Positions 3,221 to 52,919 of a stretch of 64,000 nt of DNA are shown piece by piece. Numbering within the stretch: the first letter of the stretch is position 1; the number at the start of each line of letters is the position of its first letter. The position numbers and the translations under genes were made by a program. Where the stretch lies: positions 32,001-96,000 of IMG/VR virus record IMGVR_UViG_3300015371_000006. The stretch is one strand, 5' to 3'. The notes beneath the pieces were generated by a model that saw only the letters and a list, made by a program, of their open reading frames with translations, did not search any database and was not told the origin of the DNA. The stretch is from a virus.

Positions 3221-3517
3221 CTACCGCACAGCGCGGCGGCGGGCGAGTGCTCGGGCGGCTTTCTCTGCCACGGTCTGTAGCGATCCGTTGGCCGCAGCGA
3301 GGCACTCGGCTTCGCTGTCGGTGAGGTAGATCTCAACGCCCGCCCGGCGTGAGCGCGGGCGCTTCGGGTTCGGTCTGCCGCTCGGGTAGGGCAGCGGCAG
3401 GCCCTCATGCTCCAGGCGGGTTTTCTCTGCCCGGCAGCTGGAGCCACAGGCGTGGGCGTCCACGCGCTTGCCGGTGATGTCGCCGCCACAGATGACGCAG
3501 ATGCGGGCCTGCTTCAT
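3221..3517 (-). CDS. zinc-finger putative DNA-binding protein
   Basis: CVICG...CGSSCR; basic middle region; C-terminal VEIYLTDSE resembles a ribbon-helix-helix start. Confidence 0.55.
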   Translation of the reverse strand: MKQARICVICGGDITGKRVDAHACGSSCRAEKTRLEHEGLPLPYPSGRPNPKRPRSRRAGVEIYLTDSEAECLAAANGSLQTVAEKAARALARRRAVR

Positions 3518-33541: not shown

Positions 33542-36500
33542 CTAACGGGGCTTGACGACGGCGTCGACCACGGTCGCCCCGTCGATGAGCTTGCTGCCGG
33601 TGATGCGAATCGACGTGCGCCGGGGCAGCACCACGCGGCCGGGCGTCGGATCGGTGACGGTGTCGAGCGTCGAGGGCATCAGCGCGTGCGCTCCGGTCGG
33701 GACCGTGAGCCGCAGGGTGACCACGCCGGGCGTCGGCGCGTACTGCGTCTCGGCGTTGAGGTAGCTCTTCTCGGTCATCCACTTCCCGGCCAGCTCGCCT
33801 GCGTTGTCGGCGTTGATCTTGCTGTCGGCGGGCAGCGGGACGTAGGCGTAGAAGTCCTCGTCGACTCGGGTCACCCTGTCGCCCAGCAGGGCGTCCAGCT
33901 GCGCCACGGTGCCCTGCGTCTCGGCGTCGGCGGCCGCGCGCTTGGCCCCGGAGCGCAGGTGGGCGTCCACCACGTCGTGGCCCTGGCCCAGGTAGTGCTC
34001 CATCGCTGCGTCCTCCTCGGGGTAGGTCTCCAGCGATGCGTCGCGCGCGCTGAATTCGTCGAGCACCTCCTCGCCGCTCAGCGGCTCGGGGATCTCCTCC
34101 TCGCCTCGGCTGTAGCGCCCCAACCAGGCGACTCGGGCCTTGAGGTTCTCGCGGACGCGCTCGCGCATCTCCTCATCGTCGAACGGGGCCGCGTCCACCA
34201 GCGCGTCGATGCGCTCGGGGGTCAGACGCAGCTCGGCGTCCTTGGCGGCGGCCCGCATCCCCTCCTCGGTGATCGCCATCCGCGTCCACGCCTGCCCGCC
34301 AGGCTTGTTCATCGTCCACAGCTCGGTCGGCACCGGCCCGAACGGCTTCGGCCCGCCCATCGCCCGGTACTCCAGGGTGCCGCCCTGGTCGAGTCGGATC
34401 GGGGTGTCGCCGTTCCACAGCACGTTGTCCTGCGCCAGGCCGACCACGTCCCAGTTGCCCAGCAGCGCGTCGGCGACGAAGCCGTCGGCCAGCGTTTCAT
34501 CGGCGTGTTGCCACTGGCGCTCCTCGCCGTCCACGAGCGGGTAGGTCAGCGCGCGGGTCTTGCCGAACTTCGGCACGTTCACCTCGGTGTAGCCCGCGTT
34601 CGGGACGGTGATCCCCAGCTCGCGGTAGATCGAGTTCGCCAGCAGCTCGGTTGCCACGCGGTCGCGGTTGCCCTTGTACGTCTTCACCAGCCAGCGGCGG
34701 CCCTCGGCGTCCTCGGCCATCCGCGCCCCGTTCGACCCTCCTGCGGGCTTGACGTCCTTGAGCTTCGTGGCGGTGTAGTCGGGGATGCCCTGCACCGGCT
34801 CGGGCGGGGCTTCCATCTCGGAGCGCTCGACCTCTTCGGTGCGCTCGGGCTTGCCGCCGTCCCAGCTCGCCTGCATCTTCGCCAGGAACGCCTTCATCCC
34901 CGGCAGCTCAGGTGGGCTGGCCTGGCCTACTCCTCCGGCTTCTCCTCCGGCTTCTCCTCCGGCTCCGGGTCCGACTCGTAGCGCAGCGTCTCCCCCTCCA
35001 GGTACTCCGCTGCGTCCGGCGGGAGATCCGGGGCTGGCGGCGGCTGCTCCTTCGGGTCCATCGAGGCCCATCCTACCCTGCGCCAGGAAGCCGTCCATCT
35101 TCTCGGCGTCGAGAATCTTCAGCTCGCCGCCCACATCCTTGTCGGCGATCAGCTTCGCGGGCTCGCCGCGCGGCACGTCGGTGTCCCACACCCGCAGCCG
35201 CAGCCAGGGGAGTTCGTCGTCGTACTCGGTGAAGCGCTGGGGCACGCTGCGGTAGGCGTTGTCGACGATGTGGTCGGGCACGGTGCGGCCGCTGCGCTCG
35301 GCGCGCTCGGCCACGCGGACCTTGCCCTTTTCGTGGGGGAGGTGGGCGACGTCGACCTCCACGTCGTAGCCGTCGGCGTGCGCCTGCTCCAGCTTCTCGC
35401 GGAAGCGCCCCGCGCCGGAGTTGCCGACGCCGTCGATCAGCACGTCGAGGCCCCGGTTGAAGGCTCGCGCGCGCAGCGTCCGGGCGATGATCGAGGACTC
35501 CTCATGCACGCCCGCGCCGCTGTAGGGGTCGCGCGCTTCGATCATCGCCTGGTACTCGGGCAGCTTCTCCTTGATCGCGTCGGGGTTGACCTCGACCATG
35601 CCGGTGGCCTCGGCGCTCAGCATCGAGGACTTGCCCGAGCCCGGTCCGCCTGCGGTGAACGCCGCGCGCGGCTTGCGGCCCGAGGGTGGTTCGTGGCCTT
35701 CCAAGAAGCTGTTGATGATCTCCTCGTGCAGCGCCCGGCGCTCGTCGGCGTAGACCCGGCCGGTCGGGGTCATGCGCGACCACTTCGCCTCGGTGTCGAC
35801 GGCCTCGCCCAGCACCTCATTGGCCGTCGGCCCCTTCTCCACCTGCAGCCGATCCTCGGGGCGCTCGGCGGGGCTGGCCTGGCCCATCATCACCGAGCTG
35901 AGCGCATCCCAGGCGTTGGCTGCCAGCTGCTCCTCTGAGGCCGCGTCGGCGTCACGGATCGCCTCCAGGGCGCGCACCTCCTCTTCGTCTCGCAGCGTCG
36001 TGATCGCCGGTTCGACCTCCTCGCGGCTCAGCCCGTCAACCGAACCCACGTCGCGCTTGACCGCGTAGGTGCGCGTGCCGTCGCGGTCGCGGGTGACGCT
36101 TACCTCGCTGCCGTCGCTCAGGGTGATCGTCGATGCGTCGGGCTGACCGGGGTAGAAGTCCAGCTCGTCGAGGTTCCTGCGGTCGCGGTCGCTCAGCGGC
36201 CTGCGGCCGAAGCCGGTCGGGCGGGGGCGGTCCAGTGCGCCCCGCCAGGCGGCGAGCGCAGGCATCGGCCCCGCTGCTCCGAGGGTCTGCACGCGCTGGG
36301 CATAGGGATTCCACGCCACATGGCGCGACAGGTGCAGGCCGGGGCTGGCCTGCCCGCCTTGCGCCTCCAGGGATTCGCGGTCGAGCAGCAGCTCGTTCTC
36401 GCCCGCCAGCTTGCCCAGCCACAGCGCCTTGGTCCCGGCGGGCACCGTGACCTCCTGAACGTCGCCGAATCGCTCGGCATCAGCCTTTCGCGTGCTGGTG

Positions 36501-39500
36501 CTCACGAACGGCCCGCGCAGCTTGCCGTCGTCGGCCCCGCCTCGGTAGACCGTGACCGCCTCGGGGAGCGCCCTCATCGCCCTGCGCAGCATCTTGACCT
36601 GCGGCCCCAGCTTGTACTCGCGGTCGAGCGAGGGGTCGTAGAGGATCTCGTCGGGATCGTCCGACTCTTGGAACGGCGTGCTGTCAACGATGTACAGCTC
36701 AGCCGCGTTCTGTTGGCGCGGTCCCAGCTCGGGCGCATTCGCGTCGAGCATCTCCTCAGCCGCCTTACCCTTCAGTCCGGGGCTGGCCTGGCCAGTCGCC
36801 TTACTGATTGCGGCCTTCACCAGCGAGTCGTCGAGCGCCCGGCGCTCCTCCGGCGTGCGGTCGGGGTCGTCGTCGGCGTGCTGATCCATCGCGTCGGCGA
36901 TCAGCGCCTCCAGGTCGGCGGTGTCCTCGCCGGGCTCGACCCAGCCGTTGAGCATCGACTTCGTCAGCTCGTCCTGCACGGCCTGGCGCTGCTCAGGGGT
37001 CAGCTGGTCGAGGCCGGGGCTGGCCTGGCCTGCCATCGCGCGCAGGCGCGGGTCGTCTGACTGGGACAGGTACTCCTGCTTGCGGGCCTGCAGCGAGTCG
37101 GCGATCTCGCTGCCCACCGGCTCGCCGTCGCGGGTGTAGCGGGCCTGGTGGCCGTAGTACGCCTGCGACCAGTTGTAGCCGTCGGTAAGCCGGTAGCCGT
37201 GGTCGATGACCTTGCCCTTGTTCTGCGCCTCCAGCTCGCGCATCAGCTGGGTGGCGATGCCCCGGCGCTGGAACTCGGGGATGACCTCGATCTTGTCGAT
37301 GCCGATGTCGGCGTTGGCCTCGCGCGCTTTCTTGCCGATGGCGGGCCGGTAGCGGCTGTAGGTCAGCTTGCCCACCTCCCTGCCGTCTACCTCGGCCACC
37401 AGGCCGTCGAAGTATTCGGTGTCGCCTCGCTTGCGCGGCTTGATCTCGGCGGGGCTCAGCTGGCCCGACTTGACCGCGTCGTCTACCTGGGGGTTCCAGG
37501 CGTCCAGGGTTGCGGGCGGACTCGCCTGCCCCAGCGCGAGCTTCGTGTCCGGCATCAGGCCCTTGCCTGCGGGCTGGGCGACACCGGAGCGCACGGCGAT
37601 GCCGTAGCTCTCGGCGTTGCTCATCCGGTTCGTGGTCGCGTAGCGCTTCCGTGAGCCGTCGGGGCGTTCGATCAGCACGCTGTCGCCGCGCTTGCCTCGG
37701 GTGATCGTCGAGCCATCGGCGGCCTGCAGGCTGTCGCCTCGCTGCAGCGCTCGGACCTTGCGGATCAGCGCCCGGCGCGGGTCGGAGTAGTTGTGCGGGT
37801 CGAAGCTGCCGGGCTCGATGTCGAGCGCCTCGGCGTTCGGCTCGGCGATCCCCATCTCCTTCATCGTCCGCTTGACGAAGACGCGGTCCTTCTCCTTCTC
37901 GGCTTCGGGCAGGTCGGCGTAGGGCTTCAGCAGCTCCGGCTGGTCGGCCTTCGCCCAGCTCTGGTTGCGGTCGATCCAGGCGTCGTGCACCTCGGAGGCC
38001 AGCCGCTCCATGTCGAGCGCACCCTCCTCATCGCGCATCCGGGTGATCGCGTCGTAGGCCGACGCCGCGCCGTCGCGGTTCTCGGCTTGGAACTTCTCGG
38101 GCAGCTCGTCGTAGGTCATGTCGGCGATGTCGATGGTCCCGCCCCCATAGGGCTTGGGCCGGGGCTCGTAGTTGCGGTCCTTGCGCCACTGTTCGTGGGC
38201 CTGTGCCGCGACCCTCTCTACGACCTTGTCTCGCTGCATGGCAGCGCCTGTGAGCGGTTGTTCGGGCGCGCCCTCTGCACCCTGCCCCTCCGGGGCGTCG
38301 CCGCCTCTGGCGCGCTTACGGCTCTCCGCTCCAGGGCGGGCTCGGGACACGTCGAGGACGCTCGACTCGCGCAGCAGCACCATCTCGCCGTCCTCGGTGA
38401 GCGCCTCGGCCTTCCAGCCCAGCGCGTCGTCGTCCTCGACCTTGCGCAGCTCGGCCACGGTGATGTCGCCGTTGTTCTGCTTGATCCGCACCACATCGCC
38501 CTCCGCGACCGGGCCGGTGATGTTGTTGCCCTTCAGGTTGCGCCGGGGCGGATCGGCCAGGAACTCCACGTCGTCGGGGTCGGGGTAGCGGGTGACGGTG
38601 TCCACGATCTGGCCGTTGTGGTCGCGCAGCTTGACCTCGACCTCGGCGTACCAGCGCCCGTCCTCGCCCACCATCGCGTCGGTGACCACGCCCTCCCAGG
38701 GCTCCTTGCGCCCCGTCACGCGCACGCGCGCGCCCGCGCGGATGCGCATGCGGTGGTCGGTGTAGTTGGGCTGGCGCAGCACCTCCGCTCCGGCGGCCCC
38801 CGGCCCGGCGAAGTGCTCGACCGTCCTCGCCATCAGGTCGCGCGCTCGCGCCTCGCCCTTCTCGGGGGTGACGCCCTGCGCGCCTGCCAGCAGCCCGCCG
38901 AGGATCTCGAAACGCTTCTCGGGGTCGGCGCTGAAGGCCAGGTTGTGCAGCAGCTCGCGGCGGTTCTCCAGCGGGACGTGGGCTTCGTCGAGCAGGAGCC
39001 CGAGCGCTGCGCGCTGGGGCAGGTAGGTGCCCTGGGCTCGGATGTCGTCGGGCTTGCGGCCCAGCCAGCGCAGGACGTCGTGCTGTCCGTTGCGCTTCAG
39101 CAACTCGACCGCCCACTCGTGAGCCATCTCCTCGGTCAGCGCCTCGTCGAGGCTGAAGTGCTCCGGCTGGGCGAAGGTCTCGGGGTTGATCGGGTTGACG
39201 CCGTGGGAGGCCTCGTGCATCGCCGTGCGGTAGGCGTTGTAGACGCCCGCTGCGGTGTCGTCGTCGAGCCGCCGCTTCTCCACGCGGGCGGCGTGGGCGG
39301 CCTGCAGGTGCACCTGGGCGGCCCGGCCGACTTGCACCTCGCCGTCCCAGCTGCGAAAGCCGCCCGTGTCCTCGTCGGCTTCGTTGATGCGGATCGACTT
39401 CAGCACCACCTGGCGGCCGTGCGTGTCGCCGATTTGCTGTGCAAGCCCGGCCACTCCGGCGGCAAGACCGGAGAAGTCCTCTGGTGCGCCAGCCTTCTGG

Positions 39501-40705
39501 GCCGCCATATTGCCTGCAAAGGGCACAGGAACTGGAGAAGACGTCGGGCCCCCGGCTCCATCCGGCACATCCGGCACATCCGGCGTCCCAGCAGGCATCC
39601 CGCCGGGTGCCGCCTGGCCCCCGACCTGCGTGGTGACCCTTGCTGGGATCGGGTCCGACCCGCGCTGCGCGAGCTTCGGCGCGTCCGTGCCGTGCAGGAA
39701 CCGGAGCACGTCGTTGAGGCTGATCCTCGGCGCAAAACCCCCGCGTCTTGGGCGGAAACGGCCGCCCCACACCGTGCCCTTGGCGAACCGCTCGTCCCAG
39801 GCGACCTCCTCCATGTCGAGCACGAGGTCTGCGGGTGGGACATCGGTGCCCTCGGGCTGGGACATACCGCCGGACATATCCCCAGTCAGAGACACGAGAA
39901 AGTCACCATTTGCAGGGGTTTCGCCGTTCGAGCTGAGGGACATCTCCAGGGACATCTCGGTGACACGTTCGGCCAGTAGGGCCTCTTGCAGCAGGCCGTA
40001 TCGCTCAGCGATCTGCTGGGCGCGCCGGTCGGCCGCCTCGGTGTCGGGAGCCTCGGCTCCCATCAGCCCCATGTCGTATGCCTCGTCGTGCGTGAGCAGC
40101 TCGCAGCGGCAGCCCGTGTGCGTCGGCGGGTTGATCCGGTCGAGCACGCTCCAGGGCCACCAGCCGACCGTCGCCATCGCCAGGCAGTCCGGGGTGTGCT
40201 CCTTGACCGCTTCGCTGAGGTGCCAGAACGCGCCCTCGGGGCTCAGCCTGCGGACCATGCCCCTGCGCGCGGTCGCCTGCACGCGAGCGGCCGCCGCCTC
40301 GTGGTGTGCCTCGGTGAACCGCCGCTCGCGCTCCAGCACCCGCTTGACCGCCGCCTCGGGTTCGTCGCGCTGCAGGGCCGCCGGGATGTCGCGGCGCATC
40401 CGCTCCTCCATGCGCCGGTAGAACTCGACGTCGCGCTCCTGCTCGACCCGCGCGGCCTCGGCCAGCTCGGCATCGCTCACGTCGGCGCGTGCGAACTCCG
40501 GTCGGATCGCCTTGACGATCCAGTCCGCGCCCTTGCTGCGCCGCCTCAGCGCCGCGACGGCCGCCCCGATGGCGGCCCCGGCCTGTCCCGAGGCCACCTC
40601 GCCCCCAGCAGCGTCGTCGTCGCCGGAGGCTGCGATGACGCCCCCCGCTGCGGCCGCCGCCAGGATCGCCTCGGTGTTGTCGTCCTGCTTCGCGCGCGTC
40701 GGCAT
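33542..40705 (-). CDS. MuF (minor head protein)-fused polyvalent effector protein: zincin, SH3-like, RyR, GNAT, ART, zeta toxin, HipA/PI-kinase-like, degenerate ART
   Basis: PPTHTGCRC (MuF); HEASH...DEALTE; AHEQW/VHDAW...PYADLPEAEKEKDR; VIPEFQRRGIATQL; VYRG/FVSTS/GENE; GGPGSGKS; GGSN..LVK..E...DALLGNWD...N...LDQGG. Confidence 0.85.
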   Translation of the reverse strand: MPTRAKQDDNTEAILAAAAAGGVIAASGDDDAAGGEVASGQAGAAIGAAVAALRRRSKGADWIVKAIRPEFARADVSDAELAEAARVEQERDVEFYRRMEERMRRDIPAALQRDEPEAAVKRVLERERRFTEAHHEAAAARVQATARRGMVRRLSPEGAFWHLSEAVKEHTPDCLAMATVGWWPWSVLDRINPPTHTGCRCELLTHDEAYDMGLMGAEAPDTEAADRRAQQIAERYGLLQEALLAERVTEMSLEMSLSSNGETPANGDFLVSLTGDMSGGMSQPEGTDVPPADLVLDMEEVAWDERFAKGTVWGGRFRPRRGGFAPRISLNDVLRFLHGTDAPKLAQRGSDPIPARVTTQVGGQAAPGGMPAGTPDVPDVPDGAGGPTSSPVPVPFAGNMAAQKAGAPEDFSGLAAGVAGLAQQIGDTHGRQVVLKSIRINEADEDTGGFRSWDGEVQVGRAAQVHLQAAHAARVEKRRLDDDTAAGVYNAYRTAMHEASHGVNPINPETFAQPEHFSLDEALTEEMAHEWAVELLKRNGQHDVLRWLGRKPDDIRAQGTYLPQRAALGLLLDEAHVPLENRRELLHNLAFSADPEKRFEILGGLLAGAQGVTPEKGEARARDLMARTVEHFAGPGAAGAEVLRQPNYTDHRMRIRAGARVRVTGRKEPWEGVVTDAMVGEDGRWYAEVEVKLRDHNGQIVDTVTRYPDPDDVEFLADPPRRNLKGNNITGPVAEGDVVRIKQNNGDITVAELRKVEDDDALGWKAEALTEDGEMVLLRESSVLDVSRARPGAESRKRARGGDAPEGQGAEGAPEQPLTGAAMQRDKVVERVAAQAHEQWRKDRNYEPRPKPYGGGTIDIADMTYDELPEKFQAENRDGAASAYDAITRMRDEEGALDMERLASEVHDAWIDRNQSWAKADQPELLKPYADLPEAEKEKDRVFVKRTMKEMGIAEPNAEALDIEPGSFDPHNYSDPRRALIRKVRALQRGDSLQAADGSTITRGKRGDSVLIERPDGSRKRYATTNRMSNAESYGIAVRSGVAQPAGKGLMPDTKLALGQASPPATLDAWNPQVDDAVKSGQLSPAEIKPRKRGDTEYFDGLVAEVDGREVGKLTYSRYRPAIGKKAREANADIGIDKIEVIPEFQRRGIATQLMRELEAQNKGKVIDHGYRLTDGYNWSQAYYGHQARYTRDGEPVGSEIADSLQARKQEYLSQSDDPRLRAMAGQASPGLDQLTPEQRQAVQDELTKSMLNGWVEPGEDTADLEALIADAMDQHADDDPDRTPEERRALDDSLVKAAISKATGQASPGLKGKAAEEMLDANAPELGPRQQNAAELYIVDSTPFQESDDPDEILYDPSLDREYKLGPQVKMLRRAMRALPEAVTVYRGGADDGKLRGPFVSTSTRKADAERFGDVQEVTVPAGTKALWLGKLAGENELLLDRESLEAQGGQASPGLHLSRHVAWNPYAQRVQTLGAAGPMPALAAWRGALDRPRPTGFGRRPLSDRDRRNLDELDFYPGQPDASTITLSDGSEVSVTRDRDGTRTYAVKRDVGSVDGLSREEVEPAITTLRDEEEVRALEAIRDADAASEEQLAANAWDALSSVMMGQASPAERPEDRLQVEKGPTANEVLGEAVDTEAKWSRMTPTGRVYADERRALHEEIINSFLEGHEPPSGRKPRAAFTAGGPGSGKSSMLSAEATGMVEVNPDAIKEKLPEYQAMIEARDPYSGAGVHEESSIIARTLRARAFNRGLDVLIDGVGNSGAGRFREKLEQAHADGYDVEVDVAHLPHEKGKVRVAERAERSGRTVPDHIVDNAYRSVPQRFTEYDDELPWLRLRVWDTDVPRGEPAKLIADKDVGGELKILDAEKMDGFLAQGRMGLDGPEGAAAASPGSPAGRSGVPGGGDAALRVGPGAGGEAGGEAGGVGQASPPELPGMKAFLAKMQASWDGGKPERTEEVERSEMEAPPEPVQGIPDYTATKLKDVKPAGGSNGARMAEDAEGRRWLVKTYKGNRDRVATELLANSIYRELGITVPNAGYTEVNVPKFGKTRALTYPLVDGEERQWQHADETLADGFVADALLGNWDVVGLAQDNVLWNGDTPIRLDQGGTLEYRAMGGPKPFGPVPTELWTMNKPGGQAWTRMAITEEGMRAAAKDAELRLTPERIDALVDAAPFDDEEMRERVRENLKARVAWLGRYSRGEEEIPEPLSGEEVLDEFSARDASLETYPEEDAAMEHYLGQGHDVVDAHLRSGAKRAAADAETQGTVAQLDALLGDRVTRVDEDFYAYVPLPADSKINADNAGELAGKWMTEKSYLNAETQYAPTPGVVTLRLTVPTGAHALMPSTLDTVTDPTPGRVVLPRRTSIRITGSKLIDGATVVDAVVKPR
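34927..35061 (-). CDS. nested out-of-frame 44-aa acidic peptide (candidate zeta-domain antitoxin)
   Basis: MDPKEQPPPAPDLPPDAAEYLEGETLRYESDPEPEEKPEEKPEE*; 41/44 codons end in G/C, versus 18/45 in the host frame; TAGGAT 8 nt upstream. Confidence 0.65.
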   Translation of the reverse strand: MDPKEQPPPAPDLPPDAAEYLEGETLRYESDPEPEEKPEEKPEE

Positions 40706-40813
40706 GCCCAACGAGTCTAAGCCCGAAAGCGGCGAGCGGCCCAGGTCGCCCTGGACCGCCCTCCCAGCGCCGCTCGATTGCCTTTCTTCGCCGCCGGGTG
40801 CCGCTCTCCTGCC

Positions 40814-52082: not shown

Positions 52083-52919
52083 TCAGGTCAGCTTTCGTAC
52101 AACCGTCCGCCAGGCGTCGAGCGCCGCCGGGGAGCTGTCCACGCGCCAGTCGCGTTCCTGCGGGCGGTCGTACCAGACGGCCGCCTTGATCCGGGGCAGG
52201 TGGTTGGGGATCGCGCGCAGGAAGCCGCCTCTGATCCAGGTGTTCTTGTCGCCGCCCGCCTCCACCGAGGCCACCTCGCCCAGCATGATCGGTCGCTGGC
52301 TCAGGCCCTGCAGCGTCCGGTAGCTCGGCTCGAAGACTTCGCGCAGCGTCTGCCACTTCCCCGGCCCCCCGCCCGGCCCCCAGTTGTAGCCGTCGAGCGC
52401 CATCCAGTGGACGAAGTTCGCGCCGGGCCAGTACGGGCGGATCGGGTAGTTGCCGTAGTCCACGTTCGGGCACCAGACGGTGCGCACGTTGGGCGCTGCT
52501 CGCAGCCGCCCCGCGACCCGCCGGAACGCGGCGACGTACTCGCCGGGCTGTTTGCCCCAGCCGTACCAGTCGCCGTTCATCTCATGGGCGAAGCGGATCA
52601 GGATCTTGAACGGCTGCTCCAGCGCCAGCGCGCAGGCCGCGTCGATGTAGCTGTCGTAGACGCCCCTGGCGACGTCGGCCAGCGGGATCGTCGGCCCTTC
52701 CCAGCCCGAGCGGTAGAGCTGCCAGGTGATCATCGGGGTCGTCGCGTGCGCTTTGACGTTGGCGATCTCCGCGTCGGTCAGCAGCGGGTCGGTGATGTTG
52801 CGGTAGTCGTGCAGGATCGCCGGGTGGTGGCCGGTGCGCCCGATGTAGGCGTCGAGCGTCGCTGCGCTCTCCAGCCCCGATGACTCCCCCTGCCGCGCGG
52901 TGTAGACGCCGAGTTGCAC
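52083..52919 (-). CDS. glycoside hydrolase family 26
   Basis: IRFAHEMNGDWYGWG; YWPG..VHWMALDGYNWG; PIMLGEVA. Confidence 0.85.
   Translation of the reverse strand: MQLGVYTARQGESSGLESAATLDAYIGRTGHHPAILHDYRNITDPLLTDAEIANVKAHATTPMITWQLYRSGWEGPTIPLADVARGVYDSYIDAACALALEQPFKILIRFAHEMNGDWYGWGKQPGEYVAAFRRVAGRLRAAPNVRTVWCPNVDYGNYPIRPYWPGANFVHWMALDGYNWGPGGGPGKWQTLREVFEPSYRTLQGLSQRPIMLGEVASVEAGGDKNTWIRGGFLRAIPNHLPRIKAAVWYDRPQERDWRVDSSPAALDAWRTVVRKLT

Follow-up and report, generated by a model that had tools for sequence, protein, structure and literature searches.

A short open reading frame (ORF) nested out of frame within the gene of a giant phage protein is described here, and it is likely to be a working gene whose acidic product binds, and probably inhibits, the zeta-toxin-type P-loop kinase domain encoded directly upstream of it. 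The ORF lies in a stretch of 64,000 nucleotides (nt), referred to as the window throughout the text, which corresponds to bases 32001-96000 of the 111.6-kb IMG/VR virus contig IMGVR_UViG_3300015371_000006 with a G+C content of ~70%. The long gene surrounding it is termed host ORF and its reading host frame; the nested ORF is read from the same strand in frame +1 (Table 1). That this gene is real and very probably subjected to selection we hold with high confidence, while inhibition of the kinase is the best-supported function of its product and in our judgement a probable one. Thus, a nested antidote gene has probably been missed by ordinary annotation.

Position and codon usage of the nested ORF

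A first-pass annotation, made from the letters of this DNA, had drawn attention to a +1-frame ORF reading from ATG at 35061 to TAG at 34927 directly after the zeta domain and to anomalous codons in the host frame over the same segment, and both were found as described. The ATG (35061-35059) is the first start codon after the +1-frame stop at ~35110 and is situated ~8 nt past the end point of those homologous proteins in which zeta is the terminal domain. The TAG (34929-34927) overlaps host codons GTA-GGC, which encode Val1928 and the Gly opening the next GQASP motif, and so adjoins this motif in the manner proposed. Recomputed codon counts were the same as before: 18 of 45 codons of the host-frame linker end in G/C and 27 in A/T, whereas 41 of the 44 codons of the +1 frame are G/C-ending. 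GGA makes up 12 of the 14 Gly codons in this linker versus 7% of Gly genome-wide. The synonymous-codon score of the host frame over the linker equals -2.05 compared with -0.69 +/- 0.21 for true frames, being ~6.5 standard deviations below, while the +1 frame scores -0.57, as true genes do, compared with -1.87 +/- 0.28 for ordinary +1 frames. Two genome-wide scans revealed no other frame-switch island inside a gene of the 111.6-kb genome, their remaining hits representing ordinary junctions between neighboring genes. The encoded product is Pro/Glu-rich with an isoelectric point of 4.05.

Several trivial sources of such an island were considered and discarded. Sequencing or assembly error is ruled out by contigs from two samples that are identical to the window across both borders, namely Logan contigs of run X1, which may be the source sample (34569-35001 and 35006-35195), and of run X3, which represents a different sample from another year (34803-34985). 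The idea of a duplicated or imported segment was dropped, as there is no second copy in the genome, and so was the assumption that Shine-Dalgarno-like GGAGG runs in the linker act as an internal ribosome site from which the next module is translated, as the closest ATG lies 32 nt away.

A family of stand-alone small genes behind zeta domains

An alignment-based scan of viral contigs yielded 33 loci with zeta domains, and among these homologues the domain is usually terminal. In 14 of 18 non-redundant zeta-terminal viral loci (our own tally), an ORF of 47-94 amino acids (aa) begins -1 to +14 nt from the zeta stop codon, its start often forming an ATGA overlap with this stop. The small ORFs of the two nearest loci, L003 and L004, read MTE.RIPPDSAEYL.GPMPKY... 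and align with LPPDAAEYLEGETLRYES and the acidic tail of the window's nested product (local score 65 with shuffle p 2e-4 for L004, and 59 with shuffle p 6e-3 for L003). When scanning was reversed, with the small-protein alignment as the query, four contigs were obtained, in each of which the zeta domain ends in an ATGA or GTGA overlap onto a small ORF; zeta directly precedes the small ORF in the window as well as in L003, L004, L037, and L038.

In a large protein collection, the family, designated here 'IPPDSAEYL', comprises 19 clusters (P0052-P0070) of 52-73 aa, all annotated as 'hypothetical' and belonging to no Pfam family. A hidden Markov model (HMM) built from these 19 stand-alone members hit one of the 1942 six-frame fragments of the genome, and this fragment was the nested ORF (E 0.0016, next best E 9.4), which covers HMM positions 6-22 and matches positions 42-53 weakly. 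Judged by its sequence, the nested ORF is a short variant of the 'IPPDSAEYL' family. P0068 and P0014 (zeta at the C-terminus) both derive from contigs of 19534 nt, and P0067 and P0036 both from contigs of 119583 nt, so that the members of each pair probably share a contig.

The family surfaced only through synteny and through a profile constructed from relatives. None of the small ORFs was matched by Pfam or PHROGs, comparison of the region with phage records by blastn gave none either, and tblastn against the same records found distant zeta domains only. A single-protein scan of viral contigs revealed no relatives, scanning of metagenome contigs gave one distant locus, and scanning of genome contigs with the small-protein alignment gave nothing.

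Out-of-frame ORFs in homologous proteins

The first-pass annotation had suggested looking at the linkers of homologous proteins for an open alternative frame, and such frames were indeed encountered. P0003 is the only collinear homologue, in which zeta (55% identical) is followed by a linker and by the same next module. Back-translation of 50 homologous polyvalent proteins was searched in the +1 frame with the motif PPD[SA]A[ED]YL.G....Y, taken exclusively from the stand-alone family. All 10 specified residues can be accommodated at 2 of 108,510 positions, one being the nested ORF and the other residue 1060 of P0003, about a dozen residues past its zeta domain; no position fits nine residues, ten fit eight, and a looser motif led to the same two sites. 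The Asp-Gly of the window that spells the +1 ATG is aligned with His-Gly in P0003, and Val-Ala located at the right distance can spell a stop codon. The short host-frame likeness between the two linkers, SG[VL]PGG.DA, is accounted for by the common +1-frame motif. Since this diverged protein can accommodate the motif at the equivalent site, the nested state appears, as far as back-translation can tell, to be older than a deep split and to have been maintained by selection. Selection would then operate on both frames, the host frame being needed for the conserved C-terminal modules and the +1 frame keeping the family motif in two diverged lineages.

Two further loci carry nested +1 ORFs of their own, one of them less clearly. 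In L019 (56% G+C), a 54-codon +1 ORF (L019:3180-3344, plus strand) has its ATG ~12 nt after the zeta domain, and composition is rotated to the +1 frame, with G+C at third codon positions (GC3) of 0.2 in the host frame and 0.8-0.85 in the +1 frame, while the long frame runs on for more than 790 codons. Its start is organized as AGGAT-N8-ATG, as in the window. In L031, a 42-codon +1 ORF occupies the same place behind zeta (L031:3123-3251, plus strand), its composition being not informative. The small ORFs of L019 and L031 belong to other sequence families unrelated to that of the window, and no relatives of the L019 product were found in viral contigs.

Expression signals

The hexamer TAGGAT, noted earlier 8 nt upstream of the nested ATG, is indeed present there and is a rare, promoter-linked word in this genome. 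Its degenerate form TAG[GC][AC]T occurs 20 times in 111.6 kb (223 kb, both strands together), with 17 copies on the coding strand, at least 12 of which are located within 40 nt upstream of a gene start. Behind it there is either a conserved leader with CCGACCAAGGAGG or a start codon 6-7 nt on. Most genes have the hexamer and then a leader of ~20-25 nt containing CCGACCAAGGAGG, while at least three predicted genes (starts at ~51918, 52919, and 63456) begin 6 nt after TAGG[AC]T. Thus, the proposal that the nested ORF uses the leaderless layout of other genes in this genome holds in relation to the latter group and does not extend to most genes. Exact TAGGAT has three copies in the genome, including the one at 35075-35070, and the spacer GGGCCT behind it is identical to that of the leaderless-type gene 52083-52919. 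The repeated promoter-leader itself may be written as ggTAG[GC]CT, ~15-20 nt, CCGACCAAGGAGG, 4-6 nt, and ATG, examples being found at window positions 3223, 24666, and 33544 (minus strand).

In the host frame, hexamer and ATG are spelled by GGT (4% of Gly codons), AGG (3.3% of Arg), and GAT (9.5% of Asp), a combination with a joint frequency of 1.3e-4, and the site is the only GGT-AGG among 82 Gly-Arg pairs. To judge from this usage, the three rare host codons appear to be kept only for spelling the promoter and start codon of the nested gene, which offers a clear example of dual constraint imposed on host codons by a hidden promoter and start. A two-hexamer sigma-70 scan, which does not model the -10-only promoters of this phage, found no promoter.

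Predicted complex with the kinase domain

Complex structure prediction, named among the checks in the first-pass annotation, was performed for the kinase domain (alignment A3) and the small protein (alignment A4) in three runs along with 3 controls. The model reached a score of 0.77 (0.76, 0.81, and 0.77 in individual runs), the best of the controls scoring 0.01, an outcome in favor of the proposed pairing. Of 80 solved complexes, 58 attain the score mark applied, and so do 2 of 110 mismatched pairs; as the alignments were our own, these figures are only approximate. Between runs, no less than 57% of contacts coincide, and the predicted local distance difference test value (pLDDT) of the partner does not fall below 59. 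To the interface, the small protein contributes residues 13-31, its conserved core, together with 33-34, and the kinase residues 46-51 (P-loop start), 69-71 (next to the Asp that aligns with zeta D67), 97-109, and 120-134. Covering the P-loop start, the strand by this Asp, the HEESS helix, and the IDGVGNS segment, the predicted binding mode fits active-site occlusion.

Interpretation and alternative explanations

The proposed sequence of events can be outlined as follows. In most related phages, zeta would be the last module of a large protein, with the start of a separate small ORF overlapping the zeta stop codon. In the lineage common to the window and P0003, further modules would have been joined behind the formerly terminal zeta, so the long frame now crosses the small gene and its reading there would be nothing but a flexible Gly-rich linker. 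An internal promoter, whose -10 element TAGGAT follows the phage consensus, would give rise to an mRNA with no leader or almost none, its 5′ end being predicted 0-2 nt before the ATG from the 8-nt spacing. The conserved LPPDAAEYL.G....Y stretch would then lie over the P-loop and the substrate cleft and block the kinase in the producing cell, while the toxin-bearing protein, presumably packed into the capsid without the small one, would become active once delivered. Expression, inhibition, timing, and packaging of the nested product, and with them its antitoxin activity, are what we infer from this arrangement. The first-pass annotation had assumed an immunity peptide overprinted in the linker. 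Family, complex model, and promoter lend support to this idea with the direction reversed: as the small gene stands alone in 19 protein clusters, it is on comparative grounds the older reading, and the Gly-rich linker of the host frame is the younger one laid over it.

A number of observations weigh against this picture. The match to the family is confined to 17 residues plus a weak acidic tail, and the central block DG.FTV.GKKVDA.KL.P (~18 residues) is absent from the nested ORF and apparently from P0003 too, a loss that could mean decay. The 44-aa peptide used as a query gave nothing in a word-index search among longer proteins or with phmmer against 1.84 billion representatives, and the product shows no likeness to epsilon or PezA antitoxins and matches no Pfam family at E up to 10. 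The evidence from P0003 is compatibility inferred from a protein sequence rather than from DNA, binding is a prediction of the complex model, and the spacing between hexamer and ATG is 8 nt compared to 6 nt for most leaderless-type starts of the phage.

Coding signature, family, and synteny demonstrate linkage of the small protein to zeta rather than the sign of its effect, and they would equally accompany a real and selected partner that is not an inhibitor, such as a folding or packaging helper, a capsid-loading adaptor, or some other regulator; a short, acidic, and probably disordered protein also resembles many assembly factors. Since the predicted interface falls on the P-loop and the catalytic cleft instead of a distal surface, and the position corresponds to that of immunity ORFs of phage-borne toxins (PMC5576092), such a role seems unlikely to us. 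The missing central block speaks for a relic, that is, a separate small gene run over at the loss of the zeta stop, unexpressed and with codon bias not yet decayed; moreover, with so few T-ending +1 codons, an open host frame across the ORF follows almost as a matter of course. On the other hand, P0003 has diverged far too much for all 10 of 10 motif positions to have persisted there in unconstrained DNA, the ORF has remained intact, ATG included, and rare host codons maintain both this ATG and TAGGAT, so we assign a low probability to the relic.

Two compensating frameshifts in the linker, with the +1 frame being its former reading and never a separate gene, would explain the codon bias, as linkers tolerate almost any sequence. 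This fossil, which the first-pass annotation had listed among the outcomes that would overturn its proposal, was initially favored when direct peptide searches remained empty, and was contradicted once the +1 reading turned out to be a separate gene in relatives; for the same reason, its interpretation as the former C-terminal tail and stop of a terminal zeta cassette was replaced. The +1 reading is homologous to stand-alone genes that have their own start and stop codons and occupy the immunity-gene position of phage-borne toxins, while in the window ATG and stop coincide exactly with the beginning and end of the biased stretch, leaving the fossil a very slight chance. An equally slight one is left to programmed +1 ribosomal frameshifting at the end of zeta, giving a short product with an acidic tail beside the full-length protein: frame geometry allows it and a rare AGG codon lies just upstream, yet no slippery site can be recognized, re-pairing of GGU-AGG in the +1 frame being impossible, and relatives encode the small ORF separately, with its own ATG overlapping the stop.

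It is an even call whether mid-protein toxin domains of giant phage polyvalent proteins regularly have antidote genes written in a different frame over the linker behind them, with promoters concealed within coding sequence. If they do, there would be a class of dual-coding toxin-antidote cassettes missed by gene callers, for which the window, P0003, L019, and probably L031 would represent four independent or semi-independent examples, and in all four the host-frame Gly/Ala/Arg-rich 'linker' would be a by-product of the hidden gene. In terms of annotation, odd-codon and Gly-rich linkers behind toxin domains of giant phage proteins deserve a look at the other frames, and the 19-cluster family, having neither a name nor a Pfam or PHROG entry, provides candidate inhibitors of zeta-type kinases.

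The host protein and its modules

Coordinates of the features discussed are collected in Table 1.

Table 1. Features of the nested gene and of the host ORF (window coordinates)
Feature	Position	Strand	Remarks
Nested small gene	34927..35061	-	44 codons + TAG, frame +1 of host ORF
Conserved core of small protein	34972..35025	-	Residues 13-30, LPPDAAEYLEGETLRYES; family HMM positions 6-22; predicted interface
Host-frame reading of the same DNA	34928..35062	-	Gly-rich 45-residue linker, residues 1884-1928, atypical codons
-10-type promoter hexamer TAGGAT	35070..35075	-	8 nt before nested ATG; rare host codons GGT, AGG
Host ORF	33542..40711	-	Polyvalent protein, 2389 aa counted from TTG; database form 2387 aa from ATG 40705
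Zeta-toxin-type P-loop kinase domain	35069..35794	-	Host residues 1640-1881
Walker A GGPGSGKS	35627-35650	-	Aligns with zeta GQPGSGKT
GQASP junction motif opening next module	34913..34927	-	Homology to relatives begins exactly here
GQASP junction motif before zeta module	35870..35884	-	Exact motif

Pfam domains recognized in the host protein are zeta-toxin, GNAT, ADP-ribosyltransferase, and RyR. PF06414 matches with 80.8 bits at a cut-off of 22.3 over core residues 1674-1833 (window 35213-35692), and the kinase domain is related to the zeta structure 1GVN_B with E 6e-4. The Asp of VNPD is aligned with zeta D67 (IDND in 1GVN_B) and, like Walker A, is invariant in alignment A3. Terminal-type zeta proteins stop at a position equivalent to ~35069.

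Besides the two exact GQASP motifs that flank the zeta module and its linker, four more separate the modules of the host protein (36341-36355, 36779-36793, 37016-37030, and 37517-37531, minus strand), and a second giant ORF of ~2565 aa from stop to stop has five exact copies (14547, 15177, 15855, 16668, and 16950, minus strand); in both ORFs, the motif is mostly spelled GGCCAGGCCAGCCC. Modules shared with homologues begin exactly at G[QM]ASP, so that GQASP looks like a module junction and is perhaps a protease cleavage site. A portable cassette bounded by GQASP motifs, as the first-pass annotation envisaged for toxin and antitoxin, is found in the window lineage only, the zeta domain and small gene of L003, L004, L037, and L038 being carried without G[QM]ASP. 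These four loci have a conserved EALHPRGRGGKWI ~60 aa before zeta, where the window has GQASP, and this may represent a junction or processing motif of another kind.

Neither in the host protein nor elsewhere in the genome did the MuF domain PF04233 give a match at E up to 1, there was no PHROG match, and the sole hint of MuF in this protein is the motif PPTHTGCRC, spotted by eye. As no MuF profile matches its N-terminus, it is termed polyvalent and not a proven MuF toxin. No tyrosine integrase was found in the virus record, which is 89% complete. Another +1-frame ORF, of 147 codons, extends over window positions 39400-39843 (minus strand) and overlaps host residues ~290-437, which are Pro/Gly/Ala-rich; GC3 of the host frame falls to 0.53-0.6 there, and the synonymous-codon scan gave no flag.

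Comparison with known systems

In phage lambda, the spanin gene Rz1 is fully embedded in the +1 frame of the other spanin gene, Rz. The window resembles this pair in having a small gene wholly inside the +1 frame of a larger phage gene with whose product it would work. The functions are different, and Rz1 lies within the functional part of Rz, whereas the overlap in the window involves only a linker of the host frame.

As in epsilon/zeta and PezA/PezT, a zeta-type P-loop kinase is combined with a small partner predicted to cover the nucleotide site. Gonococcal antitoxin epsilon1 is bound to zeta1 as an extended chain that lies across its ATP site (PMC5923241), and the nested product is likewise predicted to be an extended chain instead of a folded bundle, with no likeness between the sequences. 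Genes of the classical antitoxins precede the toxin gene, while the small gene is located downstream of, and here nested behind, the kinase domain; and, in contrast to plasmid addiction modules, the toxin of the window is one domain of a 2389-aa phage protein. EzeT of Escherichia coli is a zeta toxin with a cis-acting antitoxin domain (PMC4826407), and thus also combines the toxin and its neutralizing element in a single gene. In EzeT, this element is an in-frame N-terminal domain, whereas the antidote candidate of the window is a separate polypeptide from another frame. In L007 (885-1320) and L008, which represent the same protein, zeta is followed by an in-frame acidic tail of ~140 aa with AYEDSDE and DEKSDEDS repeats and then by a stop codon, and this tail may represent the small partner in cis, fused in frame in the manner of EzeT.

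Zeta-like kinases are among the effector domains listed for polyvalent proteins of phages and conjugative elements, their occurrence in phage head proteins and fusions to phage MuF proteins are known, and it has been proposed that built-in peptidases process polyvalent proteins (Iyer et al., 2017, PMC5512222). The host protein conforms to this description, with many effector domains in one polypeptide, a zincin motif HEASH (~39203-39217), and repeated GQASP. A term search of that work (PMC5512222) turned up no nested immunity gene, and none of the literature searched reported a natural immunity or antitoxin gene lying out of frame within a toxin-bearing gene.

A close parallel in layout is provided by MuF toxins of temperate phages, where small ORFs behind the toxin genes are likely immunity genes (Jamet et al., 2017, PMC5576092): a large phage protein contains a toxin domain, and a small unnamed ORF comes directly after this domain. 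In the stand-alone relatives L003, L004, L037, and L038, this layout is exact. A small ORF of <150 aa immediately downstream of the toxin domain, which is the mark used for MuF systems, is represented in the window by the 44-codon ORF, which differs from them in being nested inside the gene, in the +1 frame and apparently with its own promoter. It is found inside rather than behind the toxin gene because more modules follow the toxin domain. Thus, even for a toxin domain located deep within a multi-domain protein, phages could keep the antidote gene linked to it in another reading frame, the same DNA serving the long frame as a linker.

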